DNA from: Eledone cirrhosa
Taxonomy: Eukaryota
NCBI GenBank assembly: GCA_964016885.1
Contig: OZ024742.1
Location: 273,296,001 to 273,360,000, forward strand
Reading direction: 5' to 3'
DNA length: 64,000 nucleotides
Shown here: piece by piece, positions 2,567-62,759 of the stretch
Layout: every line of letters starts with the position of its first letter
How positions within the stretch are numbered: position 1 is the first letter of the stretch
Notes under the pieces: generated by a model
Told to the model about the DNA's origin: nothing
What the model saw: only the letters and a program-made list of their open reading frames with translations
Databases searched by the model: none
Translations under genes and position numbers: made by a program

Positions 2567-2567
2567 T

Positions 2568-4286: not shown

Positions 4287-4346
4287 TTGGAGTGAAAGCA
4301 ACTGGTGCGTGTGTTTCTTATTTTCAACATGACCCTCCCAAAGTAT

Positions 4347-4398
<52 letters not shown>

Positions 4399-16761: not shown

Positions 16762-17729
16762 TATTTATGGGATGAGATGATAATTTAAAGTGTTAATTTA
16801 AAATAATTTAAAGTGATAATTTAAAATGATAATTTGTGTAATGGACCAAAACTATTTATCAGATAATTAGTGTTTTCTTAAAAATAAAATTTCCTAAAAT
16901 ATCTCTCCTAAAATTGTGCACAGTATTTTCTGTCAAATTTATCGAGTTGTTTCTGAAAGATTTTTGCAAAAATTCATGTCAAATAATTTCGAAAATATTT
17001 CTCAAATTTATCGAATGTTTTCTTCAATTTTTCCCAAAGTTCTATAAAAAAATGTCTAGAAAAACTTTCCTTAAAGTTTTCTACATTATCGATACAATTT
17101 CAGCATTAGCTTTTCATACTCTGAATGTTTTCAATAGTTTCTGAACTTTTTTTAATCTTCATCAAACCTTTTTAAAAACATTACTGAAGATTTGCCCTAA
17201 AACTTCCCCCCATATTTCACCAAACATGTTCATCAAACGATTTTGAAGTATTTTCTTTCAATTTCTTTGTTTGGAAAAAATTCTAGGTCTTTAAATTATA
17301 TATCGGCTGATTAGTCTAATTTGCATACCGAGCAATTTTACGACGTGAAAACGAATCGAATATTATTATCACTTACGAATACATTTGCGTATCCGCTACG
17401 TTGTAGCGAAAAACCGATTTCTAATTTTGTTTTATCAAGATTAATTTTACCGAATTAAAATTCACAAAAAATTCTTTGAATAATTTCATCAATTTTTTTT
17501 TATGTTTTTCTAAATAATTATTTCAAAAACATTTGGAAATGTTAACTAAAATATTTACGGGATTTGTTTCATTTTAGAAAAACCTTGAAAGGAAAGCTTT
17601 GAAAATATTTTGATAAAATTTTCTGGGGAGAATTTGAGAATATTTTGACTAAAATATTTAGAGGAATATTTTAGGAAAACTTTGAAACATTTTTCAGAAC
17701 AATTTTAAATAAAAAAAATTGATGGTGTT

Positions 17730-18400: not shown

Positions 18401-19184
18401 GTTCAGTATCTTAAGAGTTTATTTTTAAGTGTAAACAACATAATTCTCTACAGTCGGTAATTAACATTGTCTACTTTTGTTGTTAGAAGCACAATTAATC
18501 TTCAGTGGAACGCGTTTCCATTGAAAACTTGAGATCCCGTAAATATTTAATTTGCAACAAGATAAACACGAAGTTAATATTTCGAGTATAAGCTGCGAAT
18601 ATGAGTTAAGTACGTACACCTTTAATTTGTGTCGCCAAGTGAAATCAATATGATCTCACGCTACAAAAGATATGGTAGTAAAACTTACATCAACTAACAA
18701 ACATAACTTTTAAAGAAAGTGAAATGTCACGTTTTCGACTGCTTTCCTAGGCGTAGTCAATGTTAAAAGAGTCAGCTGAGAAACATATTAGAATATAATT
18801 TCAGAGATCTGGTCTGACGCTCGTTGAAAGAAGTGATATTTTGATAAAATGTAATGGAGCTCGCAGGAGCCCGGTCAAACAACAACGCATCAGCCCTTAT
18901 TGGGATTCATTCTTCTGAGTACTGGTATTCATTTGGTCACCTATATACATTTTCTGGATGAGCATTTCTATGTTTTTAACAGAGAAGAATATGCTGTTGC
19001 ACTAAAATAATTTCATATCCTAATGTTTCGGGTTCGTTTATAGCCTCTCATGATCTGAACACTTGGTACCACTTATGCACAGCGGTAATAGAACTCTAAT
19101 TACGTATATGTTTCTTAAGTTGATGATGACGGGCTATTAAAATTAAACACGAATAATTTGGTATTTCATTACACCAGTATATTT

Positions 19185-19366
19185 GGTTTGGCAATATCGG
19201 TAGAAGGTCGGACGCCATGCTTTGTAGCATAGAGTTACGGACCATTAAGGTCTGAATTCAAATCCCGCCGAGATTAACTTTGCCATTCATTTCTACGGAG
19301 TCGATAAAATAAAGTACCAGTAATGCATTGCTATAATTGCTGGTCTTATGCCAAAAGTAGAAACAG
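19185..19366 (+). mobile_element. tRNA-derived SINE (family S1)
   Basis: Aligns by eye with the 23097-23281 copy. Confidence 0.9.
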
Positions 19367-19514
19367 TTATTTGTAAAGCCTGAACATTATTATTCTCGAC
19401 ATCTGGAAATTAAGAGGAACTTAACTTTTTCAACAAACTACTTTACTTATTCATTGAATCACTTATTAGGACAATGGGATTCATGAGTTAATATATGTAT
19501 ACGACAACTACAAC

Positions 19515-20680: not shown

Positions 20681-23096
20681 GTTACATCATAATTACTTTT
20701 CCATACAGAATGTCAAATATTTCACTACTCCCATTTGTCCATGAACATCACAATAATAATTCGCTTTCATAGTAATATTCTTTTATATTATGTTTCCAAT
20801 CGGTACCAGGCATAACATGTGTCACTGCTATGCAGTACACTCTATTATCGATACAAGTACATTCTTGGTTATAAAATGTTCGCAGCCATAGGGGTCTTAT
20901 GTATTGTTGAACACATTGATATTTAAAATCATGGCTTACAATTACAAAATTCAATACATACATTGAATTTGCTCTGTACATTTATCTGTTGTAATATACG
21001 GCAACCTTCAATATTCCAGCTTAACACTGATTTTCCCTTCAATTGTTACTAGGCCTTCACATGCTATTCTACTTTGTAAGAATGTAAAAGTAATTTTTTC
21101 GTATTGCAATGTCTAGACATAGCCAATTTATCGTAGATAGTAACTCCCGTCGTGATCATTTTTTTTTTTTCGTTCACGGTAATGTAATATTTCGGAATGT
21201 TATGTTCTAACATTTAAAAGAAGGTTATCACTGTTCATATAATTAAATCATAGCATAATGTTATTTTCTTTAATTACGTATTTCCAATACACTATATTGC
21301 CAATCGTTTAGACAAACAGTCAAGTTGATCAGTCATCATGTACTTTACGTTTTCTTAGATTAAAAAGAAAAACCAATACGGATTTCATCCTTCTGTAACA
21401 TAATTGAACGGAGTAAGATTTGAAATGCTAATGTTATAATACAAAATATCAGTTCTCGTTTTAATATATAAACAAAGTTAATTTCAAGTCTGTCCACATC
21501 TAAAAGATTGAGCAACCTGCTGTTTACTCTGATTTCGTAGACGTTAAGTGAGCGGGAGTACAAGACTAAACGCTCTCCAATGGATGCTAATTCATTGCAG
21601 GCATGGTATCAAGCTGCCGTTGGCTTTAATTATTATCATTTGTTTTTTGCTGAATAGAATAGAGCGACGGATATGGAATCGAACCCTCGAATTTATGATC
21701 ATGAGCCCAACACATTAACAGTTAGTTCATGACTATTCTGTAATATTTAGAGGGGGAATGTGTTTCAATTCTTTAATGTAATAAATTTACTTATTAATAT
21801 TTAAAATATATTAGATAGCGCCCGCTAGTTCAGTGTACGGCAAAGAAAATATGAATAAGCAGGCTTTTATTCCTCATACTCATTCCTGAATTGTGGACGG
21901 CAAGCATACCTGCGTAGTAAAAGAACAATTGATTGAAAATAACAATGTCTTGATTACGACCACATATCGTGTGATATTGAGCAAATATAGTTTACAATAG
22001 GCACAATTACACCCAATCCTTCTGATAGTAATTGTCAGTGAATAACTGTACGAAAGCCCATTAATGAACTGTTCCATTTTGTCACGCTGTTTCTGCTTGA
22101 GTATTACCTAAATATAATGTTTATGTCACGCAGTTGTTCGGAAAACTTGAATGTGTGTTCTTTGAAATCAGTGGAAGATCCATATCACTTTCTTTTTTAT
22201 CATTGGATGTCAAGTGATGTGAACAATTATACATTTTTGTCATCAAACGAATTGACTATTGTTGTTTTTTTTCTTTTGTATCTGACTTAAGATATATCAG
22301 CTACTGTCGTAGGATGGATTTGTTCGATCAGATCTCTGATAGCAACCCTTCTAATCATGTTATACGTTCATAAGATGTTCGTAATCAAAGAGTGCATCTT
22401 TTCATGCATATTAATGATGAACATATGACTGGAGAAATATATGAATTTTATTCATAGCAACGCGTGGACACTTATAGAATTCCTCTCCTTATGTAGTTAT
22501 ATCAGCAGTTAGTTCTGTAAGCGATATAAGATTATTACGTCTTGTGACTAATATTACCAAGATATGGGAAATGTATTCCAACTATGCTTCATAAGTAATT
22601 TCCATATTTCAGGCAGCAGCGAGCAATTTGATTGCATATCGAGAAAACACAGGTTCCCTATTTGCAATTCATAACAGAATTGGCTCGCCTCTTTATCCAA
22701 TTAATGCGTGCTAAACTACCAGGAACAATAGTATGCCGATCTTCAAAGGCCTCAATTGAAATGCGTCTGGGTTCAAACAATAGTGCTTATTACTTTGATA
22801 GCATCCAAACACAATAGATTCTTCGAATTGATAGAGATCTCGAACAATATTCGACCATTTACTTTTCAATTTCAAATCCAGCTCCAATCAATGTTTTACT
22901 TTTATGTTTCCAGTGCCCAAAATATGAGGTAGAATGTTATAATTAACTAATTTCTCCAACCAAAATATCCGCCCTTATGCCTATATTAGAAACAGGTATG
23001 TTCGTAACATCGTATATTGTTGTACAGGAATTTCTTTAAAACGATGTAAAGAGTGCTACAATGATGTGATATTTATGTTAGTTTGAGTGTCATTAC

Positions 23097-23281
23097 GGTG
23101 GATTGGCAGTATCGGTAGAGGGTCGGACGCCATGCTTTCCAGCATAATTACCTCCCTTTGCGGTCTGAGTTCAAATCCCGCCGAGGTTAACTTTGCCTTT
23201 CATCCTTACGGGTTCGATAAAATAAAGTACCAGTAATGTACTGGGTAATTGATGGCCTTGTGCCAAAAGTAGAAACAATTA
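23097..23281 (+). mobile_element. tRNA-derived SINE (family S1)
   Basis: A and B boxes, conserved core and 3' end gtgccaaaagtagaaacaatt. Confidence 0.92.
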
Positions 23282-23659
23282 TGTAAATTAGTTGATTCGT
23301 ATGATCAAGCATATAGAATGTCATGTCCTCAGCTCTCTTACGTTGCCAACAACCACGTGTTATCTACATATTTCATATCACTGCTGGAGTTTCTATCAAC
23401 ATAAATCAGCAACAACTTCAAGGCTCCCTACTTAGTTAGTCGCAAGTACATTGATAGCGTCAGTACTATTACAATGTCGTCATGTTACGTTTACTTGAGT
23501 GCGGGGATGGTTAACGCATCACCACGGCATAGACGAGGGAACTGGCGAGCTTCTTCACATTCGCTCTAGTCAGACGTACTATGATGTCATTGGTGGCTTA
23601 AAAGAATGTCTTTCACTGATATTTACTCCTCAAATATTACAATTCTGTAGCATAATACA

Positions 23660-24499: not shown

Positions 24500-24664
24500 A
24501 GTTGTTTCTACTTTTGGCACAAGGCCAGCAATTATCCTAGTGCATTTATCGACCCCGTAAGGATGAAAAGCAAAGTTAACCTCGGCAAGATTGAACTCAG
24601 ACCATAAAGGGCCGTAACTCTTTGCTGCAAAGCATGGCGTCCGACACTCTACCGATACTGCCAG
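24500..24664 (-). mobile_element. tRNA-derived SINE (family S1)
   Basis: Reverse complement of the S1 consensus with a small internal deletion. Confidence 0.9.
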
Positions 24665-32867: not shown

Positions 32868-32904
32868 GAAGGAGAGAGGAGGCTGTGTAGTTGCTGGATA
32901 AGTT

Positions 32905-33365
32905 ATACTTAAAAATAAGAAGATAGCATGAACGGGAGAAAGTTTTCCTTCATCAGTTGTCTGCTGGGGCTCTTGGATATTTCTACGCATTAAAGACAAG
33001 AGATATCGCCCCAGTACGTTCAATAACTAACGTCAGTTGTTTGGAAAAAAGGTAGGGAGAGAAAGAAAATATAAGATGACAGAAGGGAAAAGGAAGAACA
33101 GAGAAAAGAGAAAAACATCGAAAAAAAATGGGAAACAACAAAACGAAAAGTGTGTGAGCAACTCCTTTCTCTTTTCTCAACTTTTCCCTTCTGTTATCCT
33201 ATATTTTCTTTCTCTCCTTCCCAATTTTTCCCAATAACTTACCTTAGTTATTGAACGAACTGGGGCGAGATATATTGTCTTTAATACGTAGAAATATCCA
33301 AGACTCCCAGCACACAACTGATGAAGGAAAACTTTCTCCCGTTCATGCTTTCTACTTATTTTTAA

Positions 33366-33368
<3 letters not shown>
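32905..33368. repeat. About 460-bp imperfect palindrome, probably inverted PLE pseudo-LTRs
   Basis: 32905-33030 is the reverse complement of 33244-33368. The inner purine-rich and pyrimidine-rich halves also pair. Each arm has CTGATGA pointing outward. Confidence 0.85.
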
Positions 33369-33399
<31 letters not shown>

Positions 33400-33767: not shown

Positions 33768-33952
33768 GCAGTAGATTGGCAGTATCAGTAGAGGGTCGAA
33801 CGCCATGCTTTGACGCATAGAGTTTCGTCCTTGCCATTCTAAGTTCCCGCCGAGGTTAACTTTGCCTTTCATCCTTACTGGATCGATAAAATAAAGTACC
33901 AGTAATGCACTGGGTAATTGCTGGCATTGTGCCAAAAGTAGAAACAATTATT
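33768..33952 (+). mobile_element. tRNA-derived SINE (family S1)
   Basis: Matches the other S1 copies. Confidence 0.9.
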
Positions 33953-34248
33953 ATCTCCTAGACTTAATGATTAATTGATTAATTTAATTAGACAATTATA
34001 TCGATTGGTTAATTGTTTATGTTTGTTTAATAACATCTACTTGAGAGATTTCATTCGGTTTGTGTAAAGGATATAAATCATTTGTTCAAATTCTGAATTT
34101 GACCGCCAGAACCAGGGGTTACATCCCTTCGGATAATCCACGTGACTACTGGCAGTGTTTACTACTAGTCCTTGCAACCGGCGGCGGCAGAACGAAAACT
34201 TGTTGACGAAGTAAATTCCACTGTTCTATCTTCTAAAGACCAATTAAC

Positions 34249-36009
34249 TTGCAAGCCCCTGCAATTGGATTTTGTGACAGCACGGAGGACCTCCTCAGCA
34301 GAATCGGCGTGAGTAACCGATCTGGGGACGTAACAAACTGCATAACAGGCAGTATGGATGTTGTGTCCCTGTATCCATCTATTGACGTGGATTTTGCTGT
34401 GGAGAAATGCGTAGAAATGATCAGTGAGAGCAAGGTTGAGTTCCGTGGGATTGATGCCAGTGAGCTCGGACACCTACTTAAGCTTACGTATAGTAATAGT
34501 TACCTAGACACTTATGACCTTAGCAACCTGTGCCCTACAAGACCAGCAAGAGGCAGACCACCTATCATTACCTCAATGGCCAAGAAAACCCACACAGATA
34601 GATGGAACGGGTAGACCAGAGCCATACGGACACCCGAAAACCACGATGAACTGAAGAAAATGATTGCACATGCGGTAGGGGCCAGCATAAAACTAACCCT
34701 TAAGGAACATATGTTCAAATTTAATGGAAAAACATATGCCCAAGAGGAAGGAGCAGCCATTTGTGTTAGCATTGCAGGCGACATAGCTAACTTATTCATG
34801 GTATGGTGGGACAGTAGACTTAAACTTAAACTTAAAGAACAATTAGAAGACCCCTTAACCCTGATAATGTACTCCCGCTATGTAGATGATATAAACATCG
34901 TAGTTAAGACACCCCCACTAGAGAACAGTCAGGAACTAGAGAAAAACACAATGGAAAGCATCCAGCAAATAGCAAACTCCATCCACCAGAGCATTAGAGT
35001 TACTATAGACTACCCAAGTAAACACGCCAACCATCGATTACCTGTACTAGACACAGAGCTCTGGTTAGATACCATTAACAACAAAAAACAAATCCTCCAT
35101 TCCCATTGTGCCAAACCCATGACTTCCAAACATCTGATCCACCGAAACTCGGCCATTTCGGACCATTACAAAATCAACATACTGATTGCGGATTTGGTAC
35201 GGGTGATGAGAAATGTGTCCCGCATGTGCAACCCCGAAGAACTAGAGAGACACATACAACACTTCATCCACCGTATGCAGTTCTCTGGCTACAATCAGAG
35301 AGATAGAATCAGAGTGTATAGAGGAGCCAGAACCAAATGGGAAAAAATAGTAAATAATGACATAAATGGGACCTGCCCCTTGTATAGGAGCAAATTTTGG
35401 AATAGAATAGAAAGAACTAGGAAAAAGGCTAATAGAATAAACTCATGGTATGATAGCAATAAATACCAGAGTGTAATGTTCATCGATACAACCCCTAGAG
35501 GTGAACTAGCTTACACATTTAGAAGGGCCCTAAATAAACATAAACTCAATATTAAGATAGTAGAAAGACCAGGTACCTCCGTAAAAACACTTATTAGCAA
35601 GACATACCCTTTTCAAATACCCTCATGTATAGATAAGAAATGTGTAACCTGTAAAATAAGCCCCCATATTAACTGTAAAACTAGAAATGTAGTGTATAGC
35701 ATAAGATGTCCTGAAGGACAATGTAGAGACAAAAATATAGTGTACATAGGTGAGACAGCTCGTAGTGTAGGGGAACGGCTAAATGAACACTGGCGAGACC
35801 TTCAAGATAATATAGAATCATCTGTACTCTACCAACATGCTAAGATAGAACACAAGGGTAAATTAGAGAACATAGAAATAAAAATAGAATCTACACACAG
35901 AAAAGACGCAATGTTCAGACAAATTACAGAGGCAATAAACATAAAAGAATTACAACCAAAATTAAATAGAAAATATGAGTGGAACAGCAACATCACAACT
36001 TACAATTAA
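34249..36009 (+). pseudogene. PLE RT-GIY-YIG ORF with a single in-frame stop at 34612-34614
   Basis: Continuous reading frame except for the TAG (possibly TGG>TAG). N-terminus missing. Confidence 0.9.
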
Positions 36010-36209
36010 GGACAAAATGAAAACACACACACACATAGAACAAACAACCAACCAGTAACATGTAATTAAACAAATAGATAAATGAACATAAACACACACA
36101 GACACCCGGATGTGGCGCATGCGCAGACTGAGCACACAAAACACACACAGAAACAAAATGGCGTAGGACAGAACAAAGGAGAGGCACAGAAACAAAGAAA
36201 GGAATCCCC

Positions 36210-36254
36210 AGTCACTGAAGAGGTCACAGAGTGTGTGACGAAAGAACTATGACT
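36210..36254 (+). ncRNA. Minimal type-I hammerhead ribozyme (family A)
   Basis: Stem I agtca/tgact, CUGAAGA at 36215-36221, stem II gtcaca/tgtgac, GAAA, 2-bp stem III with AA loop, CUA triplet. Confidence 0.8.
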
Positions 36255-36458
36255 ATATATAAACAACTATCTGGTTGTGGAACCAACCAACCAACCAGAA
36301 ATTTATAAATTTGTAAATTTATAAATATATAATAAATTGAAGTGAAAGCAACTGGTGCGTGTGTTTCTTATTAGCAACATGACCCTCCCAAAAAATAACA
36401 ATATCGGTTTCAACACACGATTTCAGATAAAGAATCTTGCTAAACAAATTCAGAAACG

Positions 36459-36499
<41 letters not shown>

Positions 36500-41830: not shown

Positions 41831-42009
41831 TACCTTAACCCTTCACACAAAGTAAAATATTTCGTTTTAATCATTTTCTAACCCAGAAAAAGAGAGAGAG
41901 AGAAACAAAAAAAGGGAAAACAAATATTTTTCTTCCACATAATCGTCTCTTTCTCCCTGTTTTCTTATATATATATATGTGTGTGTGTGTATATATATAT
42001 GCATATAAA

Positions 42010-42081
<72 letters not shown>

Positions 42082-42212
42082 GATAAATCTACCAAGAGTT
42101 TACGGTAGTGTCCAATCCGTATGAAGAACTCAATGTATTCCGGATATCATGGAAAGAAGAGATGTAATGAAAAACCACTTTCGGTGAAAGATAAACGGTA
42201 TACAGAGTCAAG

Positions 42213-43081
42213 ATAAAATATTAAACAAATAATGAATAAACAATTTCTTATATTAAACAAAAAAGGTTCATTATTTAACGATCGTTTCTAGGATATATAT
42301 GTGTTAGAATTGGTATGCATATTCAACAGATCTATGTACAAAATTATACAAAATTATACAAATTATCAAGATTAAATATACATACCAAACACATATATAC
42401 GCCGTCTTCAGAAATAATGAAGTATATTTATTGATAATAACAACAATTCAAAATTTCAGGTCCGTTTGGGAACAAAAATTGACCAATGAAAACACAAAGG
42501 GTTAAATGCAGTTCGGTGTGTGTATATACATGTAAAACCCTTACACATATTTTACAAAAATGTATGTATAAATTGTATACGCATACTAAAAGGATGGATG
42601 CAAATACAAAATTTCAAGGTTAATGTCTCTGTGAGTTATTGACACTTATGAAGTTAAGTATATAAATATATTTTTTCATACTCACATATATCCGTACAAT
42701 CACACATACACGCGCGTATATGCATAAATATACACATAACCACGAACATACAAACACACACACACCCCCACTCACATTTATATATGTGGATATAAAATCA
42801 TAAGCACATGGATATTAATTCACTCACATAAAACACTGGCATACACATTTTCAGATCAAGATACAGAAATTAGGTGGGAGGGGGGGGGGGGGTCAGTATT
42901 CAACGGTCTGAACAGACTGCCTAATATAAATGTATCTATAAACTAAGAAAAATAAAACAAATAAAACATAATAAATAAAACATTAAGGAGGAAAGAATAG
43001 AAAGAAGAACAGAAAAAAGAAAAAAGAAAAAAGAAAAAAGAAATATATCAAGAAAATAAATATACACATATACACATACAT

Positions 43082-43128
<47 letters not shown>

Positions 43129-43692
43129 TATATATATATATAAAAAAACATACATATATATACACACATAGACACTTACACATCCATACATAAATATACA
43201 CACATATATAAATACATACATACATATACACACATCCACACTAAGAACATACATACACACACATATATAAACATATACATATACACACATACATACATAT
43301 ACACATATACATACAAATACACATACATATATATATACACACATATATATATATATATATATACACATATATATACATACATATGCATATACACGTACAT
43401 ATACACACACATATACATATAATCACACATACTATACAGACACAGATATATATAACCACACACATACATGCAAATATACAACACTTACATACTAATATAC
43501 ATACAGATATACACATACATAGCTATATATACACACAAATATATACAGATTTACATATATACATACAGACAAATACTTACGCATCTATATATCGGTATAT
43601 CCATACTAACACCAACTACACTATCACACAACATAGAAATACAAAGAGAAAGGTATATACCTATACACACATACATATACAAATAGAAAAAC

Positions 43693-43735
<43 letters not shown>

Positions 43736-43762
43736 TACATATACATATATATATATATATAT

Positions 43763-43806
<44 letters not shown>

Positions 43807-44056
43807 TACACATACAAATACACATACATAAACATACAGATATATACACATACATACATGTACACACACACAGAAATATATACGCATACATACATACACA
43901 CATACATATAAAGTCATACACACATATACATCTACACGAACATACACATACACATATATAAAGATATATATACACACACACACACACACGCAACACATAC
44001 ACACATACACATATATATAAAAAATAAATAATAAAGATATATACATATATATATAT

Positions 44057-44099
<43 letters not shown>

Positions 44100-44480
44100 T
44101 ATACACACACACCTAAATATACATACACATACATACATACATAGACATACATGTACATACATATACGTACATCGATATACATATATATATATACATACAC
44201 ACATAGACATATACATACATACACACACAACTTACATACACACATATATATACATGTATATTCATACATAGAATTAGAAATATAATCATACATACATATG
44301 CACTTACTTATACTGATATATACAAATACATACGCATCCATTTATGCGTATATACATAAAAAACACTACAACCTTACCTAACTCAGACATACAAATAAAA
44401 TATTAATAAAAAGGCATATGTATATACATACACACACGCATTAATAGAGATATATATATATACACATACACATATACATA

Positions 44481-44535
<55 letters not shown>

Positions 44536-44647
44536 ACTCATACATATACACATATATATATATATATATATATACAAAGATACCTACACATTCATACCAC
44601 CATAAATACACATACAAACACCCACATATACATATATATACACACAC

Positions 44648-44686
<39 letters not shown>

Positions 44687-44855
44687 AAAAACAGACATGC
44701 ACATATATATATATATTTTTCTACACTTATATATAGACATATTATATACATATACATAACTTCACTTATACACACATACACATAAGTTATATTATAATAA
44801 TAAAAAATAATATATATATATATATATATATAACATATATATATATATACATACC

Positions 44856-44897
<42 letters not shown>

Positions 44898-44957
44898 CAA
44901 ACACATACATACACATATACACACATATGAATATAGATATATATTCACACATAGACA

Positions 44958-45012
<55 letters not shown>

Positions 45013-45586
45013 ATATACACAGACACATATACACACTCACATATATATATATGTGTGCATGCACACACACATATATACATACATACACATATATACACAT
45101 AAACACATATATGTGCATACATGCACATACACACACATATATCACATAGATACGGAGATAGACATATAAATAGAGAGACATACATATATATACAACACAC
45201 ATACACACACATACATACACACGCATATACATATACATATATATATACATATATATATTCCTATATATACACATAACATATATATATACACATATATACA
45301 CATACATACACATATACGTACACACATTCACATACACATACATATATAGATGCATATATACACACATATACATACATACACACACTCATATATACACACA
45401 CAATCTTACATTCATATTTGCATGCACATATATGTATTTTTATATTTAGATATAAATACCCAAACCTATATAGACACCTACCTACATATATATTCATACA
45501 TAGACGCTTACAAATACAGATGATAATAGTATGGGGGAAAAGGGGGGGTTTGGAGAAGGGGATCAAAGTAAATATATGTTTCAAGA
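42213..45586 (-). repeat. Left arm (3.37 kb) of a giant inverted repeat, interpreted as a PLE-type 3' tail
   Basis: Near-identical reverse complement of 46644-50008. Confidence 0.97.
42267..42421 (-). ncRNA. Hammerhead ribozyme with extended stem II (family B), left copy
   Basis: Mirror of 49800-49954. Confidence 0.75.
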
Positions 45587-46073
45587 TGTTTTTATTACAG
45601 ATAATATGTTTAATATGTTTTTATTACAGATATGAATATAAAATATTATGTAATCATAAATTGTGAAAAACCTTTAAATATTACTAATATATACTTAGTA
45701 ATTTAATTTATAGATTAATTTTAATTTATTTAAACCCTTTATTATTTTTATTATAATTCTTTTACAGATAAAATATAACAAAATAATATCGTGTATCCAA
45801 TGACAGAGAAATAATTTTTAGTATTATTGACCTAATTAATATACATTTTAGAAATATATTTATAATTTGGTTTTAGTTTTAATCAACCTAAAAATTTAAT
45901 TTTAATTTGCTTAATATTAGTATCCTTATACAGACGAATTGCAGAATGTCATGTAATCATAGAATGCGATGTGTTTTGGATATATACCTAGTTAATATAT
46001 TCTATGCAATTTTTTGAAAAAGATATGTATATGTATATGTGTATGTGTATGTGTGTGTGTATGTATATGTATA

Positions 46074-46112
<39 letters not shown>

Positions 46113-46643
46113 GTGTATATGTGTATGTGTATGTATATGTATATGTATGCGTATTAATTTTGATTTCTATTTGCATATAATTATATTATGCTATTGATGA
46201 AATACAATATCTGCTTTATGTATTGTATACCTAATTAACATATACTATAGAAATAAATATATAATTTTTAATTTAGTTAACCTATAATTTATATTCTACT
46301 ACCGATGTACTACTTTATTTTATTTGTTTTTTCCCTATTACTAATTTCATTTCCTAATATTGATACCATAACGTTATTAACTTTAATTTAGTTATACTGT
46401 AATTAATACTCTACTACTATTTAACTTCAAAATTCTGCTTCAAATATTATAAACCTAACTAATTTACACCTTAGAAATCAATATGTTAACTATCTTTGGT
46501 TTAGTTAACATATAGTTAATGGTATACTTGTTTATTTTGAGATGCATAGATTTTGCCTTAGTTTTTATTTGTTGTATTTTATAACACTGAAAATATGTAA
46601 AAAAAACATACATTGGATAAAGATACGGAAAATTTTCTATGTT

Positions 46644-47214
46644 TCTTGAAACATATATTTACTTTGATCCCCTTCTCCAAACCCCCCCTTTTCCCCCATA
46701 ATATTATCATCTGTATTTGTAAGCGTCTATGTATGAATATATATGTAGGTAGGTGTCTATATAGGTTTGGGTATTTATATCTAAATATAAAAATACATAT
46801 ATGTGCATGCAAATATGAATGTAAGATTGTGTGTGTATATATGAGTGTGTGTATGTATGTATATGTGTGTATATATGCATCTATATATGTATGTGTATGT
46901 GAATGTGTGTACGTATATGTGTATGTATGTGTATATATGTGTATATATATATGTTATGTGTATATATAGGAATATATATATGTATATATATATGTATATG
47001 TATATGCGTGTGTATGTATGTGTGTGTATGTGTGTTGTATATATATGTATGTCTCTCTATTTATATGTCTATCTCCGTATCTATGTGATATATGTGTGTG
47101 TATGTGCATGTATGCACATATATGTGTTTATGTGTATATATGTGTATGTATGTATATATGTGTGTGTGCATGCAGATATATATATGTGAGTGTGTATATG
47201 TGTCTGTGTATATG

Positions 47215-47274
<60 letters not shown>

Positions 47275-47334
47275 TGTCTATGTGTGAATATATATCTATA
47301 TTCATATGTGTGTATATGTGTATGTATGTGTTTG

Positions 47335-47376
<42 letters not shown>

Positions 47377-47543
47377 GGTATGTATATATATATATATGTT
47401 ATATATATATATATATATATTATTTTTTATTATTATAATATAACTTATGTGTATGTGTGTATAAGTGAAGTTATGTATATGTATATAATATGTCTATATA
47501 TAAGTGTAGAAAAATATATATATATATGTGCATGTCTGTTTTT

Positions 47544-47582
<39 letters not shown>

Positions 47583-47694
47583 GTGTGTGTATATATATGT
47601 ATATGTGGGTGTTTGTATGTGTATTTATGGTGGTATGAATGTGTAGGTATCTTTGTATATATATATATATATATATATGTGTATATGTATGAGT

Positions 47695-47747
<53 letters not shown>

Positions 47748-48128
47748 TATGTATATGTGTATGTGTATATATATATATCTCTATTAATGCGTGTGTGTAT
47801 GTATATACATATGCCTTTTTATTAATATTTTATTTGTATGTCTGAGTTAGGTAAGGTTGTAGTGTTTTTTATGTATATACGCATAAATGGATGCGTATGT
47901 ATTTGTATATATGAGTATAAGTAAGTGCATATGTATGTATGATTATATTTCTAATTCTATGTATGAATATACATGTATATATATGTGTGTATGTAAGTTG
48001 TGTGTGTATGTATGTATATGTCTATGTGTGTATGTATATATATATATGTATATCGATGTACGTATATGTATGTACATGTATGTCTATGTATGTATGTATG
48101 TGTATGTATATTTAGGTGTGTGTGTATA

Positions 48129-48167
<39 letters not shown>

Positions 48168-48417
48168 ATATATATATATGTATATATCTTTATTATTTAT
48201 TTTTTATATATATGTGTATGTGTGTATGTGTTGCGTGTGTGTGTGTGTGTGTATATATATCTTTATATATGTGTATGTGTATGTTCGTGTAGATGTATAT
48301 GTGTGTATGACTTTATATGTATGTGTGTATGTATGTATGCGTATATATTTCTGTGTGTGTGTACATGTATGTATGTGTATATATCTGTATGTTTATGTAT
48401 GTGTATTTGTATGTGTA

Positions 48418-48461
<44 letters not shown>

Positions 48462-48486
48462 ATATATATATATATATGTATATGTA

Positions 48487-48531
<45 letters not shown>

Positions 48532-49099
48532 GTTTTTCTATTTGTATATGTATGTGTGTATAGGTATATACCTTTCTCTTTGTATTTCTATGTTGTGTGA
48601 TAGTGTAGTTGGTGTTAGTATGGATATACCGATATATAGATGCGTAAGTATTTGTCTGTATGTATATATGTAAATCTGTATATATTTGTGTGTATATATA
48701 GCTATGTATGTGTATATCTGTATGTATATTAGTATGTAAGTGTTGTATATTTGCATGTATGTGTGTGGTTATATATATCTGTGTCTGTATAGTATGTGTG
48801 ATTATATGTATATGTGTGTGTATATGTACGTGTATATGCATATGTATGTATATATATGTGTATATATATATATATATATATGTGTGTATATATATATGTA
48901 TGTGTATTTGTATGTATATGTGTATATGTATGTATGTGTGTATATGTATATGTTTATATATGTGTGTGTATGTATGTTCTTAGTGTGGATGTGTGTATAT
49001 GTATGTATGTATTTATATATGTGTGTATATTTATGTATGGATGTGTAAGTGTCTATGTGTGTATATATATGTATGTTTTTTTATATATATATATATGTG

Positions 49100-49142
<43 letters not shown>

Positions 49143-49999
49143 ATGTATGTGTATATGTGTATATTTATTTTCTTGATATATTTCTTTTTTCTTTTTTCTT
49201 TTTTCTTTTTTCTGTTCTTCTTTCTATTCTTTCCTCCTTAATGTTTTATTTATTATGTTTTATTTGTTTTATTTTTCTTAGTTTATAGATACATTTATAT
49301 TAGGCAGTCTGTTCAGACCGTTGAATACTGACCCCCCCCCCTCCCACCTAATTTCTGTATCTTGATCTGAAAATGTGTATGCCAGTGTTTTATGTGAGTG
49401 AATTAATATCCATGTGCTTATGATTTTATATCCACATATATAAATGTGAGTGGGGGTGTGTGTGTGTTTGTATGTTCGTGGTTATGTGTATATTTATGCA
49501 TATACGCGCGTGTATGTGTGATTGTACGGATATATGTGAGTATGAAAAAATATATTTATATACTTAACTTCATAAGTGTCAATAACTCACAGAGACATTA
49601 ACCTTGAAATTTTGTATTTGCATCCATCCTTTTAGTATGCGTATACAATTTATACATACATTTTTGTAAAATATGTGTAAGGGTTTTACATGTATATACA
49701 CACACCGAACTGCATTTAACCCTTTGTGTTTTCATTGGTCAATTTTTGTTCCCAAACGGACCTGAAATTTTGAATTGTTGTTATTATCAATAAATATACT
49801 TCATTATTTCTGAAGACGGCGTATATATGTGTTTGGTATGTATATTTAATCTTGATAATTTGTATAATTTTGTATAATTTTGTACATAGATCTGTTGAAT
49901 ATGCATACCAATTCTAACACATATATATCCTAGAAACGATCGTTAAATAATGAACCTTTTTTGTTTAATATAAGAAATTGTTTATTCATTATTTGTTTA

Positions 50000-50008
<9 letters not shown>
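46644..50008 (+). repeat. Right arm (3.37 kb) of the giant inverted repeat, ending in (TA)n
   Basis: Differs from the left arm by a few substitutions and by microsatellite lengths. Confidence 0.97.
49800..49954 (+). ncRNA. Hammerhead ribozyme with extended stem II (family B), right copy
   Basis: 10-bp stem I ttcattattt/aaataatgaa. CUGAAGA at 49810-49816. Stem II helices tatatatgtgtt/aacacatatata and tggtatg/catacca. GAAAC-gatc-GUU with palindromic AACGATCGTT. Confidence 0.78.
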
Positions 50009-50057
<49 letters not shown>

Positions 50058-50170
50058 CATATACATATATATGTTAATATATATATATAGTTGTGTATAG
50101 TGGTAGCTATGGTGCTTCCATAGGCGGTATGTCAACATTAGCACTCGATATTCATCAGAGTAGAGTGTAG

Positions 50171-50915
50171 ATATTATAAAGGAAACGAAAAATCAGTGAT
50201 GCATCTCGACTTAGTTTATTTCGCGTTACAAATGTTTCGCCGGCATGTAGCTCGTGTTATGGTCCTTGTATGGATTTGGCTGATTCTACTTCTGCGGGTT
50301 CTTTCAGACACGGGTGTTACGTCCGGAGAGAATTTTTTCACTGGGGTGTTATCATCAAAACACACCCTCAAAAAAACCCATTACCACTCTTGTCATGCCA
50401 TTGGCTATTTTTCTCCACTTCATCACAAGTACTGGTCAGTATCTCCTGCCACGCGGTTCATCAACCATTTTCCGTCCGACACATTTCAATGGAGTCATGC
50501 TGGGTTACGTACTTCACACGTCTGCTCACACTTCAGAGTAAGCACCCACACATACTAAAATACACACATACACACACACACATGCAGACACATACGTATC
50601 TATGTATACACACACGTACGCCTACATGCGCAGACACACACACCTCCACATACATACATCAAAGTATATATACGCACACACCCTCTCTCCCTCACTTCCA
50701 CGGACCCATTCACACCCACTTGTTGATACATAACATATCGCCACAAGCCTTCTGACGGCTGCTCACCTCCCGCCCTAGACCAGTTGGGACAAGCATATCC
50801 TACTCCAACATATACATATATACATACATACGCGCGCACATATACATACGCCCAAACTTCTATAGATTTATACATATATATATATATATATATACACACT
50901 CATACACGCACATAT

Positions 50916-50946
<31 letters not shown>

Positions 50947-51297
50947 CACACATGTGTATACACGTATTTATATATATACACACATATACATACATACACA
51001 CATATATATATAAATGTATACTCACACATACAAATAAACATACGTACATAAACATTACCTACACACGTACAAACACACACACAGTTATATATATATATTT
51101 ATATATATATACACATATATTCACACAAGCGAAAAGAGACAACTTAACATGCACCCGTGTCTGAAAGAACCCGCAGAAGTAGAATCGGCCAGATCCATAC
51201 AAGGAACATGACTCGAGCTACATACCGGCGAAACATTTGTAACACGAAATAAACTTAGTCCAGATGCATCACTGATTTTTCGTTTTCTTTATAATAT
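50171..51297 (+). mobile_element. PLE 3' fragment (family C) with an inverted pseudo-LTR copy at its 5' side
   Basis: 50171-50316 is the reverse complement of 51152-51297. The interior has a weak EN-tail-like remnant and a CA-rich tract. Ends in (TA)n. Confidence 0.8.
51156..51246 (+). ncRNA. Variant hammerhead (family C); mirror copy at 50222-50312 on the minus strand
   Basis: Stem I cgtgt/acacg, CUGAAAGA, 61-nt stem II region, GAAAC-attt-GUA. Confidence 0.6.
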
Positions 51298-51313
51298 ATA
51301 TATATATATATAT

Positions 51314-54300
51314 GTACGATATTAAACAAATGGAAACTACATTTATAAAACCATATTTATTTTATTATATATATTTCAGGGATATCATATTAAAAATATG
51401 GTATGCCCTCTTCAGACAAAATACAATATATAGACAGTTTTATAAATAAATTTGACATACCTGAGAATTTACAACTTCCATTTAAAAAGTTGTTACGTTA
51501 GTGAAAATGTTAAGGACGGTTAGAAAGAAAGACGGAGAAAAAAGGAAAAAAGAAAAAAAGAAAAAGAAGGAGAAAAGAAAAAGAAAGAGCGGAAGGTGAA
51601 GAAGATGAAGAAATGTATGTAAAGAGAAAACCACCAAATGAGAGATCTATGAGGGAAGGGGGTACTGTAATTATTCATTTATTTATTTATTTATTTAGTG
51701 TTAAGGATACGGGGAGAAATAAAAATAAAAATAAATAAGGAGAGGTAGATCGAGTGATATCTATTATACGAGGTGGGAGAGATAGGGGAGGGGTGATATA
51801 CAGGAGATAGAGTTAAAATTGCCGATATAAGAGTAGAGGGAGGATGAGAGGAGATATACTTAGAAACAAAAATGATAGTTTTAAAATATTATGTTTCATC
51901 AGTCTATCAATTCCTATGAATTATAATGTAAACATCAATATTCATGAATGAGACACATATCAATAATGTGTGAAAAAAATAATGACTATATGTTTAGTTT
52001 AAAAATTCATAGGTTTATAATCAAAATCTGAGATAAAACCTAAAAAAATACTGGAATACATAAGTATATATGTATTTTCATGAAAAAAGAGAAAAGAGAA
52101 AGAAGAAGAGAAGGTTATCTCAAATTGACATTATAGACACATGTGAGTTTACATGATCAGCTCTGTAAATTTTTATTTCACATGGAAATCTTCATTGAGT
52201 TAAAAAGATGTTACCATACACATAAGTGTACATACATATATATATACATAAAATATACATTATTAATAATAATAATATTCATGCCCTTTCTTACATGATT
52301 ATCGTACAAGCATAGAATAGAACAGATATCAATATATTAAAATATTAAAAACGCCAAGAATAGTTTCCTCCCCAGAATATCTAGGGCCGTTATAAAAACA
52401 CAGTGTGCCCAGCATATCAATCAATCCCTCCAATTTATTTGACAATACTGCCAAGTTTATTAGAAGCAATCAGAGTCAAAAGCAAACAAAACCAAAATTA
52501 TTGACCAAACTATTTAACAGAAATCATTCAAAAAAAACTTTAGGATACTCGGTTGTTCTACAGATGCTCTTATATTTATTATAGAAGTTTATCTAGCTTA
52601 AAAATGTTATTCAATAGATTTGGATCATCACCGTTTTAAGGTAGTTTAATTACATTATTAATTATATATTCATGAAGAAGGTTTAAGGAATTGAAGGAAT
52701 CGAAAGATTTATCGCCAAGTTTTCTAAAATAATTAAAAGTCTTAAGTAAATATACTACATTTTAAACTTATATTTATATTTAAAAGTTGAGTTCAATCTA
52801 TGTCTGCAGCAACTGAATAAATTGGTCCGTAAATTAAGGGAAGTTTTAGATTTTAGTATAAAGAATATCTCCTCCGCGCAGAGGTCACATGTCTCAGAGG
52901 AGGAGTTAAAAGGAATCCCTCTTGAGACTATATTCCAAACCGTCGAATATCCAACGTTATCATGTTTAAGTTGCCAGAGTAAGCCTGATAGTGATGTTGA
53001 AGATTTTTTGTTTGGATCTGTGAAAGAATTCTTGTGATTATTATAGCGAAGTTTAAATTCTGTCGAGGTGGAACCAACATAATTAAAAGAATTTAAGTCA
53101 GTTTTAACATTACAGTTGTATATTATAGTTTTAACTAAGCAATTGTTATATAACGGGCATTTAGATCTATCTCTACAGTTACAGTTGTTTACTTGAATAT
53201 TGTTTATGCTATTATCGGTATTTTGGCTAGGTTTTAGATTCCTATTATTTATTCTATTAATATTTTGTGCTAAATTTTTGGTGGACGAGTAGGTTAATTT
53301 TATAGTATGTCTATTGAAAATTGAGTGATACTTATGTGTTCTAGGGAATCGTTTGTCAAGAGCATTAAAAAATAATTTAGCGATGTGGGTTTTAATGTTT
53401 AGTGAGAAAGGGGGGGGGGGGCAAACCAAATTATGTTTCCAGTTCTATTTCTTTTCTGGTTTTTGGAATTATTGTAATTCTTTCTATTATAGTTGTTAAA
53501 GTTGTTACCGTAATTAAAATTGTTGTTATTTTGGTTAGTTTGATATTATTATCGATGTACATAATTTTATCATTATATCCTGCTCTAGCTAACGCTTCAT
53601 TGTAATAGTGGGCTTTTTGGTCGAAAATATTTTTATTAGATGAGATTCTAGAGATACGTTTTTGAACAGAGTTCACTATAGTATTTTTAACAGATCTGGG
53701 GTGGTTGGAGTTAAAGTTGACATAATTCAAGTTTTCATTTAACTTGTGAAATGGATAATGAAGACATGTGTTGAGATTTAATGTTACATCTAGGAAATTG
53801 ACTGTTCTATGGTTATTCTCAATTTCTATTTTTAGATTAAGGTAATTAAAAAATTGTATAATTTGTTTTCTTTTTCTATTTAGTTCAGAGTTATTATTTT
53901 CAATAAGTAAAAGCATGTCATCTCGATATAATCCTCCGGTAGCACCGGGTATTTTCCTATGCAGCGAATTAATTATGAATAGGCCCACAAGGTCTGTTAC
54001 CTGAGCTGAGTCAGATGATCCCATAGTAATGTCAAAATTGCTATCCCTATCTGCCCTAGTCCATAGTTGGTTATTAAATTCTATCAATGTTTTTCTTGCC
54101 GATAGTATAATGTGCATTTCATTGCTAGTTAGGTCTGTATGTTTGAATGCATAATTTAGTGCCTTATTTAGCAGGTTAGGGGTAATAGATGAATAGTAGT
54201 TAGCAATATCTAGTTGAATAAATTTATTATTATTGTTATATTTAATATCTTTAAACCACTCAATAACCTCTCCAGTTCCCTTCCACAAGCTTAAGTTAGG

Positions 54301-55371: not shown

Positions 55372-55459
<88 letters not shown>

Positions 55460-55554
55460 GTGTAATGAGTTCAAATGTCAAGCATTTCTTTACAATGAAA
55501 ATAGCTCAAAGAAAAGAATATTTCTGAGCCGTGTAATAAATATAAATCAATATG

Positions 55555-56179
55555 TATGATGAAACACAGATATCAACATATATTTGTGTTTATATTGCAA
55601 AAGGAATAAGTTAGCTAGATTGAAATATACTAATTATAATATTACAGCCTGCCTACATCGATTTAAAATAATAAATCAACGCAAACAAGCAGTATTGGCA
55701 AATGGCTATGGTGTTTAGACAAATTTAAATTTCAAAATCAAACCTGTTCCGTTGGTAAGTTTAAACTTTAAAATCCAAATATGTTTCGAGGTAAATAAGT
55801 GTAAGGATATCAAGTCCTGCTCTCTTCAGTAATCACCCATTACACTTAATAAAATTGCTCCAAAATTATTTGGAAGTGAAGCATATCAATTTGTCTTGGG
55901 TGTTTACTGAAGAGAGCAGGACTTGATATCCTTACACTTATTTACCTCGAAACATATTTGGATTTTAAAGTTTAAACTTACCTACGGAACAGGTTTGATT
56001 TTGAAATTTAAATTTGTCTAAACACCATAGCCATTTGCCAATACTGCTTGTTTGCGTTGATTTATTATTTCAAATCGATGTAGGCAGGCTATAATATTAT
56101 AATTAGTATATTTCATTCTAGCTAACTTATTCCTTTTGCAATATAAACAAAGATATGTTGGTATCTGTGTTTCATCATA
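55555..56179. mobile_element. ORF-less inverted pair of pseudo-LTR-like units (family E)
   Basis: Arms 55555-55839 and 55897-56179 with a 57-bp spacer. Each arm carries an outward-reading HHR motif. Confidence 0.85.
55902..55977 (+). ncRNA. Putative type-I hammerhead (family E); mirror copy at 55759-55834 on the minus strand
   Basis: Stem I gttta/taaac, CUGAAGA at 55907-55913, stem II gag/ctc, GAAAC..GUU with a 16-nt loop III. Confidence 0.6.
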
Positions 56180-56254
56180 TATATTTATTATATATATATA
56201 TATATAGTGTGTGTATATATATATAGTGTGTATATATATATATATATTCATTAA

Positions 56255-57955
56255 GTTAATGAACAATTAGAAGACAGCTTAACCCTGATAATGTACTCCC
56301 GCTACGTAGATGATATAAACATCGTAGTTAAGACACCCCCACTAAAGAACAGTCAGGAACTAGAGAAAAACACAATGGAAAGCATCCAGGAAATAGCAAA
56401 CTCCATCCAGCAGAGCATTAGAGTTACTATAAACTACCCAAGTAGACACCCCAACCATCGATTACCTGTACTAGACACAGAGCTCTGGTTAGATACTATT
56501 AACAACCAAAAACAAATCCTCCATTCCCATTATGCCAAACCCATGACTTCCAAACATCTGATCCACCGAAACTCGGCCATTTCGGACCATACCAAAATCA
56601 ACATACTGATTGCGGATTTGGTACGGGTGATGAGAAATGTGTCCCGCATGTGCAACCCCGAAGAACTAGAGAGACACATACAACACTTCATCCACCGTAT
56701 GCAGTTCTCTGGCTACAATCAGAGAGATAGAATCAGAGTGTATAAAGGAGCCAGAACCAAATGGGAAAAAATGGTAAATAATGACATAAATGGGACCTGC
56801 CACTTGTACAGGAGCAAATGTACAGGAGCAAATTTTGGAATAGAATAGAAAGAACTAAGAACAAGGTCAATAGAATAAACTCATGGTATGATAGCAATAA
56901 ATACCAGAGTGTAATGTTCATCAATACAACCCCTAGAGGCGAACTAGCCTACAAATTTAGAAGGGCCCTAAAGAAACATAATCTCAATATTAAGATAGTA
57001 GAAAGACCTGGTACCTCCGTAAAAAACACTTATTAGCAAGACATACCCGTTCCAAAGACCCTCATGTATAGATAAGAAATGTATAACCTGTAAGATAAGC
57101 CCCCATATTAACTGTAAAACTAGAAATGTAGTATATAGCATAAGATGTACTGAAGGACAATGTAGAAACAAAAATATAGCGTACATAGGTGAGACAGCTC
57201 GTAGTATAGGGGAACGAATAAATGAACACTGGCGAGACCTCCAAGATAGTAAAGAATCATCTGTGCTCTACCAACATGCTAAGATAGAACACAGGGGTAA
57301 ATTAGAGAGCATAGAAATAAAAATAGAATCCACACACAAGAAAGACGCAATGTTTAGGCAAATTACAGAGGCAGTAAGCATAACAGAATTAAAACCAAAA
57401 TTAAATAGAAAATATGAGTGGAACAGCAACATCACAACTTACAATTAAGGACAAAATGAAAACACACACACACATAGAACAAACAACTTACAATTGAAAA
57501 CACACACAAAATGAAAACACACACAAGACAAAATGAAAACACACACACACATAGAACAAACAACCAACCAACAATAAATAAATAAATAAACAAACAAATA
57601 GAAAAAAATATAAATAGAAAAATAGAAAAATGAACACAAACACACACAGACACCCGGATGTGGCGCATGCGCAAACTGAGCACGCAACCCACACACAAAC
57701 AAAATGGCGTAGGATAGAAGAAAGGAAAGGCACAGAAACGAAGAAAGAAATCCCCAGTCACTGAAGAGGTCACAGAGTGTGTGACGAAAGAACTATGACT
57801 ATATATAAACAAATATCTGGTTGTGGAACCAACCAACCAACCAGAAATTTATAAATTTGTAAATTTATAAATATATAATAAATTAAATTGAAGTGAAAGC
57901 AACTGGTGCGTGTGTTTCTTATTGGCAACATGACCCTCCCAAAGTATAACAATAT
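56255..57955 (+). mobile_element. Penelope-like element family A, second coding copy, 5'-truncated just before RYVDD
   Basis: Highly similar to about 34835-36402. Frameshifts from a 14-bp duplication (tgtacaggagcaaa, about 56805-56832) and an extra A near 57021. Flanked by (TA)n. Confidence 0.97.
57756..57800 (+). ncRNA. Minimal type-I hammerhead ribozyme (family A)
   Basis: Identical to 36210-36254. Confidence 0.8.
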
Positions 57956-57958
57956 ACT

Positions 57959-57995
<37 letters not shown>

Positions 57996-61882: not shown

Positions 61883-62075
61883 AGGGCGATGGATTGGCAG
61901 TATCGATACAGAGACGGACATCATTCTTTGAAGCATAGAGTTATGTCCCTTTATCATCTGAGTTCAAATCCCGCCGAGGTTAACTTTGCCTTTCATCCTT
62001 ACCCGGTCGATAACATAAAGTACCAGTAATGTACTGGGTAATTGCTGGTCTTGTGCCAAAAGTAGAAACAATTAT
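61883..62075 (+). mobile_element. tRNA-derived SINE (family S1) in a (TAT)n tract
   Basis: Matches the other S1 copies. Confidence 0.92.
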
Positions 62076-62759
62076 TATTATTAATATTGGTCGATGAAAC
62101 GAATGGATGTATTATCACGAGCTTGAATAACTTTGTGATTTCTTTGAGTTAAATTCCTTTTGTTATTAATATTTTTGTTGTAAAAGGGCATAAGACTTTA
62201 GACTTAACCCTCAAGAAACGACTCCCAATAGTATGTGGGCTTTTTTGTCACAAATGTTTAATCTTTGTGAGCTAAAATAGATTTATCGAGAAAAACATAT
62301 GCTGGAGCAAACGCTCCCCGTTGCTTTGAGTTTGCTGTCGTGCGACAAATGCTCAAACGTTGAGGCTTATAATGCTGCCCCTCCCCAAATACCTTTGAAA
62401 TGTAACACCACATTAGGCATTATGCTAACGACAGCACCAACAATAACAAAACCAACAACAGTGAGAACAGGAATATAAAAAAAATGACAACACAAACAAC
62501 AGCAGCAACAGTGACACCATTACTAACAGCAACACCAACAACAGTAAAAACATTTTCGTGAACAAAACCGGCAACAGAACAATTAACAACATCTACAACA
62601 ACAGCTGCCATAAGGACAACAAAAAAGAATAATACCAACCACAACATAGTTAACGAAAAACAGCAAAAGACCAACAACAAAAATATCGACAACAGCAACA
62701 ACATCAACAAAAAGAGTAGTTTCGCGGCCCCAGTAGAAAAAGGCTAAACGCTGAACGAT

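Follow-up and report, generated by a model that had tools for sequence, protein, structure and literature searches.

A probable Penelope-like element insertion forming a 7.9-kb palindrome with non-coding arms in Eledone cirrhosa

Background

The question raised by this locus is how a palindrome of nearly 8 kb, with arms that encode no protein, came to stand between two (TA)n runs. It lies in a stretch of 64,000 nucleotides from Eledone cirrhosa (assembly GCA_964016885.1, contig OZ024742.1, positions 273,296,001 to 273,360,000 of the forward strand), hereafter the window, whose own numbering we use throughout. The initial annotation, made from the letters of the window, placed the unit at 42213-50008, described it as two inverted arms each ending in an outward-facing hammerhead ribozyme, and considered it a giant non-autonomous, retrozyme-like derivative of a Penelope-like element (PLE), or a PLE with a multi-kilobase 3' tail, copied recently as an inverted pair. 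Here we report that the unit is very probably an insertion made by a PLE. We also propose, as a tentative account of how it was made, that two cDNAs of one template without any open reading frame (ORF) were joined head to head in a single insertion, with captured host DNA inside.

Results

Extent of the palindrome and absence of coding sequence

Self-BLAST aligned 42213-45586 with 50008-46644 at 99.11% identity over 3382 columns, leaving a spacer of 1057 bp between them, which bears out both the near-identical reverse-complement arms and the recent inverted pairing of the earlier description. A global alignment of the arms resolved 13 difference events, namely 5 substitutions (at 43123, 44315, 45004, 45055 and 45529) and 8 indels, all of the latter within dinucleotide runs or a G run. 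Two of the substitutions are clear of run edges, 44315 (G/C) and 45529 (G/T), and the second, which faces 46701, is an arm difference noticed beforehand that proved real in the global alignment. Barring later homogenisation of the arms, 2-5 substitutions per 3.4 kb indicate a young insertion.

The right end of the unit stands where it was first placed, adjoining a (TA)n run. The left end does not, as there the insertion continues for 134 bp more, up to a (TA)38 run, and the whole insertion takes in 42079-50008 (7.9 kb) with (TA)n at either end. This agrees with the (TA)n targeting of Hydra clade PLEs, a feature that is common to Naiad and others and is not diagnostic.

About two thirds of the arm (43 of 67 bins of 50 bp) is of low complexity, and the 8 longest ATG ORFs listed for each arm copy were all microsatellite translations, in line with the first description of the arms as mostly low-complexity sequence with no real ORF. 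Two PLE profile hidden Markov models, which recovered the other PLE ORFs of the window, found no reverse transcriptase (RT) or GIY-YIG domain under an iE of 0.5 in 42079-50008, and a tblastn search with 135 queries gave one weak match of 20 aa (E 0.017) in the unit. The unit is no autonomous copy of a PLE. We dismissed the possibility that a decayed Hydra ORF lies in the spacer or inner arm, since the profile and tblastn searches found no remnant of it. Pfam, run on the 118 complex ORFs (at least 70 aa) of the window in a search that would miss short exons, gave 2 matches, both to transposon domains, and therefore no host transcript through the palindrome is indicated.

A repeat family at the outer end and its one-sided tail

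Regarding the outer end, we compared contigs from 4 public runs (X1, X4, X5 and X6, with 3 organism labels from 3 studies) of the 16 runs holding part of the stretch. The comparison covered 42085-42990, and it is for this interval, the outer 0.9 kb with the tail included, that family status is established. All four runs were used as contigs, which show no RNA ends or levels and whose summed depth is not a copy number.

Contigs matching this interval at 80% identity or more occurred in all four runs (2493, 369, 325 and 416 contigs), with all identity bands represented. The summed depth in X1 was 1.1e5-9.0e5 over the outer 370 bp (42085-42456), 0.9e4-4.1e4 over 42457-42704 and then 2.8e3 at 42953-42983; a depth peak at 42736-42797 is a CA repeat common to unrelated loci and was disregarded. 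This inward fall has the polarity expected from 5' truncation. Together with the many variant contigs it fits 5'-truncated and probably dispersed copies, as endonuclease-bearing (EN+) PLEs have them. Single unitigs of the same run reach a depth of 4133 alongside others of 6-18, and these depths suggest a family of hundreds of copies or more. The hammerhead-bearing end is thus multi-copy, by the contigs of all four runs, and not the single-locus sequence from which the initial annotation would have concluded an ordinary inverted duplication.

The family has a short 3' end, at the outer end of the arms, from which its sequence extends at least 770 bp inward, and it has a longer one. The 134 bp beyond the left arm, hereafter the tail, have a high summed contig depth in three of the four runs (X1, X4 and X5), matching that of the arm end in X1 and X5, and a variant contig end at the tail enters TA repeats. 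One contig of X4 (depth 43) covers the tail as far as 42240, and another of that run (depth 106) starts exactly at 42213; in this one run, the pair reads as a branch between long and short 3' ends. X6 has little or no cover of the tail and of 42426-42642, which proves nothing. An optional tail on one end only, as EN+ PLEs have it, is therefore found here as 134 bp of family sequence on the left arm. Neither the outer end nor the tail was found as a direct repeat (a direct pseudo long terminal repeat, pLTR, or a partial tandem) within the window.

At five positions (42246, 42265, 42687, 42842 and 42852) at least 99% of the X1 depth differs from the window, and the arms agree with each other there. 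These common non-majority letters fit an origin of both arms from one shared source copy. The core of the hammerhead-like motif has no variant among the best-supported contig differences listed over 42085-42990. At 42637-42640 other family copies have about 21-28 extra bases (contigs with 21 gaps and loose ends), so that a deletion there is common to both arms. A search of sequencing runs with 49230-50008 returned no RNA run among those listed, which is not evidence on expression.

A hammerhead-like motif in each arm

Both motifs face outward and each ends 54 nt short of the outer end of its arm, so the fold reported at about 55 nt from each end was recovered, here by a relaxed type I descriptor. 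At the level of this descriptor the core letters, the NUH site and helices I and III of a type I hammerhead are present: helix I has 10 bp, the core is intact, and helix III has 2 bp with its loop within a self-complementary 10-mer (duplex of -11.8 kcal/mol). Helix II is a domain of 116 nt with a C.A mismatch at its base, instead of the pair at 10.1-11.1 in the standard hammerhead numbering. The motif lies in sense near the 3' end, where EN+ PLEs carry theirs. When the outer 838 bp were shuffled 2000 times by mononucleotide, the descriptor matched one of the shuffled sequences, and the 155-nt motif folds far better than its shuffles (z -7.3).

Nevertheless, several results count against a working ribozyme, and we treat the hammerhead as a predicted one. 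The minimum-energy fold (-47.8 kcal/mol) pairs part of the core and is 3.2 kcal/mol more stable than the hammerhead-like fold (-44.6 kcal/mol), and to this are added the long helix II with its C.A closure and the silence of Rfam. Rfam gave no hammerhead match at the gathering score, and up to E=10 over 49700-51500 there was no hammerhead among 57 rows, which were miRNA-like and driven by microsatellites. A hammerhead pattern limited to short helices matched 16 times, never within the arms, where helix II exceeds the length it allows, and a 26-nt hammerhead pattern matched no metagenome or viral contig.

Published motifs offer partial parallels. Mismatches at the base of helix II occur in PLE motifs, with C.A in PLE-X1_cBra and U.U in several Penelope_HM entries; Hydra-clade and other PLE hammerheads also have U at their cleavage site (PMC8557442). 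A self-complementary helix III loop is a signature of metazoan hammerheads that fold as dimers (PMC4209133). The motifs of the unit were not found in the published supplement of PMC8557442.

The inner junction and the polarity of the unit

A two-copy stutter straddles the left inner junction, with 13 bp on the arm side and 16 bp on the spacer side (Table 1). Together with the arm alignment, this junction repeat identifies an inverted copy, truncated at its 5' end and joined there. The G-C skew is +0.93 in the TG tract of the spacer, +0.71 in the right arm and -0.70 in the left arm. To judge by this strand composition, the spacer is probably the 5' continuation of the right arm, and since its skew matches that arm, the right arm plus spacer would form a copy of 4.4 kb, longer than the inverted copy represented by the left arm (3.5 kb with the tail). 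The spacer also contains three diverged (69-76%) copies of an AT-rich unit within 45815-46530, at about 45817, 46152-46300 and 46375-46528.

Table 1. Features of the palindromic unit in the window
Feature	Positions	Strand	Basis
(TA)38 run, left half of the presumed target site	42003..42078	.	Repeat scan
3' extension (tail), 134 bp, one-sided, family sequence, lacking on the right arm	42079..42212	-	Contig cover in 3 of 4 runs; single copy in the window
Left arm, probably the shorter, inverted 5'-truncated copy	42213..45586	-	Self-BLAST, global alignment
Type I hammerhead-like motif, predicted cut after 42277	42267..42421	-	Relaxed type I descriptor
Inversion junction, 29-bp two-copy stutter over the arm/spacer join with 8-nt microhomology	45574..45632	+	TRF, period 29, 2 copies, 93%
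Spacer, 1057 bp, about 80% AT, diverged internal repeats, 137-bp TG/TA tract	45587..46643	+	Skew, self-comparison
Right arm, probably with the spacer the longer (4.4-kb) copy; stops at the short 3' end, tail-less	46644..50008	+	Self-BLAST, alignment, skew
Degenerate TG/TA microsatellite tract, 2.3 kb; mirror at about 43056-45400	46830..49168	+	Repeat scan
Type I hammerhead-like motif, predicted cut after 49944, GUU site	49800..49954	+	Descriptor, fold, shuffles
(TA)n run, right half of the presumed target site	50009..50050	.	Repeat scan

Other elements in the window

The window is rich in transposons and in microsatellites. Three further palindromes with outward-facing hammerheads are present at 2539-3336, 50091-51300 and 55457-56199, with arms of 264, 149 and 305 bp and identities of 90-96%. 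The last two are bounded on either side by (TA)n, and each is extended on one side only, by about 77-79 bp. The palindrome at 50091-51300 adjoins our unit and has 93% identical arms, an 835-bp spacer with microsatellite DNA, an extension of about 77 bp and hammerhead-like cores at 50307 (-) and 51161 (+), each with a single additional A. That at 55457-56199 has 96% identical arms, a spacer of 57 bp, cores at 55829 (-) and 55907 (+) and an extension of about 79 bp. Since tails measure 77-134 bp in three different families, long tails appear to be general in this genome. Among six other inverted pairs examined, three have hammerhead cores and three do not; the latter (9061-9762, 13901-14591 and 32904-33370, with arms of 68-210 bp at 76-94%) had no core detected in their arms, and lone cores lie near them at 8964, 9413, 32498 and 32734.

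A PLE of Hydra-clade type occupies 54486-51310 on the reverse strand. Its RT and endonuclease frames are broken by a frameshift near 53430, it has a CxCx5C linker, and its 5' part is replaced or interrupted by a 650-bp TA/TG tract. Its 3' untranslated region (UTR), from the ORF end at about 52758 to a hammerhead at 51423-51358, measures 1.4 kb, which is long for a clade listed at less than about 3 kb in total; the linker and endonuclease motifs agree with the published Hydra alignment (PMC8557442). A second PLE family, with RT plus GIY-YIG, is present as four pieces (34237-36460, 56253-57980, 2539-3336 and 4272-4379), of which two hold long ORF parts (94% identity) and one is an inverted pair. 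The best named matches of two retroelement proteins of the window were to Argonauta hians (47%) and, for this second family, Octopus vulgaris (67%). A dispersed repeat of about 185 bp, probably a short interspersed element (SINE), has six copies at 79-88% (16581-16766, 19184-19372, 23096-23282, 24545-24663, 33771-33954 and 61887-62078).

Discussion

Comparison with known systems

The PLE-type origin first suggested for the unit gains from the outer-end family, the one-sided tail, the (TA)n ends and the similar palindromes in the window, and our confidence in a PLE-made insertion is high. The closest published relatives are the inverted insertions of EN+ PLEs (Fig. 2 of PMC8557442; PMC3846280), which share the head-to-head 5'-truncated copy, the outward hammerheads on opposite strands, the tail at one end and the (TA)n. 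One of them, Penelope-13_HM of the Hydra clade, is 3045 bp long with a 966-bp inverted copy, has hammerheads on both strands and is inserted in (TA)n (PMC8557442). The initial annotation thus understated how far this layout had already been described. The unit differs from these insertions in its 3.4-kb arms, in having no ORF in 4.4 kb and in lacking a direct pLTR. Its tail of 134 bp is about four times the usual published 30-40 bp, its 116-nt helix II contrasts with the short helices of the canonical PLE motifs listed, and its non-coding copy alone takes 4.4 kb, whereas the consensus sequences listed for the Hydra clade measure 1.1-3.0 kb, so that it exceeds the 3 kb below which that clade is placed (all PMC8557442).

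Three other systems share part of these features. In Adineta vaga, ORF-less or host-derived DNA was moved in trans by a terminal repeat (Pen1 spacers and an NRPS gene mobilised by Pen3a; PMC3846280); there, however, a cargo of 0.9-1.5 kb or a gene stands between direct pLTRs with a readable target-site duplication, whereas the cargo of our unit would be mirrored and its capture is inferred only. The dual minimal hammerheads of Schistosoma are opposite-strand pairs linked to truncated PLEs, with a palindromic helix III suited to dimers, but they are about 100-700 bp apart as against about 7.4 kb here, and their conserved G10.1-C11.1 is C.A in the unit (PMC4209133). Animal non-LTR retrozymes are also non-coding, with type I hammerheads and a proposed dependence on PLEs (PMC7229834; bioRxiv 10.64898/2026.07.22.740005). 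They are nevertheless built of head-to-tail monomers of 150-450 bp that yield circular RNAs (PMC7229834), and the unit has one motif per arm and no such period. As its ribozymes are on opposite strands, one transcript would release no monomer. The unit is no retrozyme, and the label "retrozyme-like" is not supported.

We found no paper on multi-kilobase non-coding PLE arms or on the family of the unit, in a search that left most subscription papers and Repbase outside; the Octopus vulgaris repeat library (PMC13282606) may already hold this family. The architecture is known, and what is new is its scale: 3.4-kb non-coding arms, a 134-bp tail and a 116-nt helix II.

A possible mechanism

Commonly, a PLE insertion contains an inverted copy truncated at its 5' end, together with a tail of 30-40 bp on one side (PMC8557442). 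A PLE protein studied in vitro cleaves both strands and extends them, has two RT start sites that bound the tail and accepts uncleaved RNA as substrate (PMC11167929). Penelope pLTRs have been found with host DNA captured alongside, as spacers of 0.9-1.5 kb and non-coding cargo (PMC3846280). On this basis, the unit could result from one retrotransposition event in which a PLE RT/GIY-YIG protein acted in trans on an uncleaved RNA of at least 4.5 kb, transcribed from one source copy without ORF. The template would consist of about 3.6 kb of microsatellite and AT-rich DNA followed by the 3' end of the family (at least 0.8 kb, with the hammerhead and the 134-nt tail), and its inner 3.6 kb would most likely be host sequence transcribed by read-through from upstream. 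The endonuclease would cut within a (TA)n run, and reverse transcription would start on both cut strands from the two start sites of the family, which lie 64 and about 198 nt beyond the ribozyme site in the 3' direction. The resulting cDNAs, of 4.4 kb without the tail and 3.5 kb with it, would then be joined at their truncated ends through microhomology, with the 29-bp stutter.

Both arms hold sequence on either side of the predicted cut, and so the template would have been uncleaved there. Furthermore, since the tail is on the left arm only and the stutter marks the left inner junction as a new join, the left arm is not simply a DNA copy of the right one.

A number of points weigh against this account in its full form. 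The target-site duplication is unreadable, as both ends sit within (TA)n. No contig listed bridges tail and arm by 31 letters on each side; in three runs the contigs reach 28, 19 and 10 letters into the arm, which leaves the case for the tail good though short of formal. The letters of the window at 42842 and 42852 are carried by no X1 contig, the runs are probably without this very copy, and the shared letters may in part mean a species or population difference. The orientation of the spacer depends on strand skew. Host-DNA capture is argued from precedent and composition only. As to an encoding partner, the 3' end of the neighbouring Hydra-type element shows little similarity to the unit (z 3.2; 1 of 300 shuffles; the strongest result among 9 ends compared), the rest of that UTR has no similarity to the end of the unit, and the unit is assignable to no PLE clade. 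Finally, a scheme in which the spacer is part of the left arm and the first cDNA folded back on itself, with no twin priming, works equally well; the published model of antisense self-priming (PMC3846280) expects a palindrome at the junction, and the 1-kb spacer shows none.

Alternative explanations

Two alternatives keep the PLE-made insertion and differ in what the template was. The whole sequence of at least 4.4 kb may be the body of a giant non-autonomous, ORF-less and PLE-dependent family. We consider this unlikely, though by no means negligible. It would explain why no ORF remnant is seen across 4.4 kb and why family sequence reaches so far inward of the short end (at least 770 bp); the neighbouring second palindrome likewise has microsatellite DNA between its arms, and young Penelope-like insertions in Octopus vulgaris have a mean of 5.4 kb (336 insertions and 1,829,278 bp, by division of a table row in PMC13282606). 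Nevertheless, family status is supported over 42085-42990 only, the contig depth has dropped about 100-fold by 42983, and the tract resembles the ordinary host microsatellite DNA of the window. Carried further, this would mean that octopods host an abundant family of giant (at least 4.5 kb), ORF-less, microsatellite-filled PLE parasites, whose tail measures 134 nt and whose hammerhead has a helix II of 116 nt, landing as multi-kilobase palindromes by twin priming with a dimeric RT, a proposal that we regard as speculative and rather unlikely. An autonomous PLE with a 3' UTR of more than 4.4 kb, truncated ahead of its ORF, is an improbable template. The 1.4-kb UTR between ORF end and hammerhead in the neighbouring Hydra-type element, with a similar polypyrimidine tract, speaks for it, but each of the 27 Hydra-clade consensus entries listed in PMC8557442 falls within the sizes given above in its entire length, and not even the 5' end of the spacer shows a trace of an ORF.

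The other two do without a PLE event at the time of inversion, and we hold both to be very improbable. In one, a replication template switch produced a DNA-level inverted duplication of an older resident PLE end and its flank. The microhomology and stutter at the junction would fit DNA repair too, microsatellites favour template switching, and the non-majority letters common to both arms would follow as well. However, the second breakpoint would need to hit the short 3' end of the family and the (TA)n exactly, and the scarred junction belongs to the arm with the tail. In the other, the palindrome is an assembly mirror from a fold-back or chimeric read. Most arm differences are changes of repeat length attainable by sequencing error; against this, two substitutions lie off run edges, the unique flanks differ, the stutter is templated and the window has the three further palindromes of this kind. 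The asymmetry also falls on the branch point of the family, and a mirror artefact would have no cause to stop at the short end.

Conclusions

The formation of inverted PLE structures is posed as an open question in PMC8557442. The asymmetry of the unit, in which the long start site goes with the shorter arm and the short start site with the longer arm, with a scarred join and a single source, is what a two-primer model derived from the in vitro PLE work would predict. With their long tails and arms, octopod copies make the formation of such structures countable. If the inner 3.6 kb are cargo, PLEs move and mirror kilobases of microsatellite DNA, which would be one route to the repeat-rich octopod genome. 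If they are family sequence, the unit would be a non-autonomous PLE derivative about ten times the size of a retrozyme. In either case, were the unit transcribed through, a hairpin of double-stranded RNA would follow from its geometry, which the initial annotation put forward as a candidate ADAR or small-RNA substrate. Cephalopods edit their RNA heavily. If the family of giant parasites did exist, its insertions would provide a constant supply of very long, perfect RNA hairpins to a lineage in which A-to-I editing is extreme.

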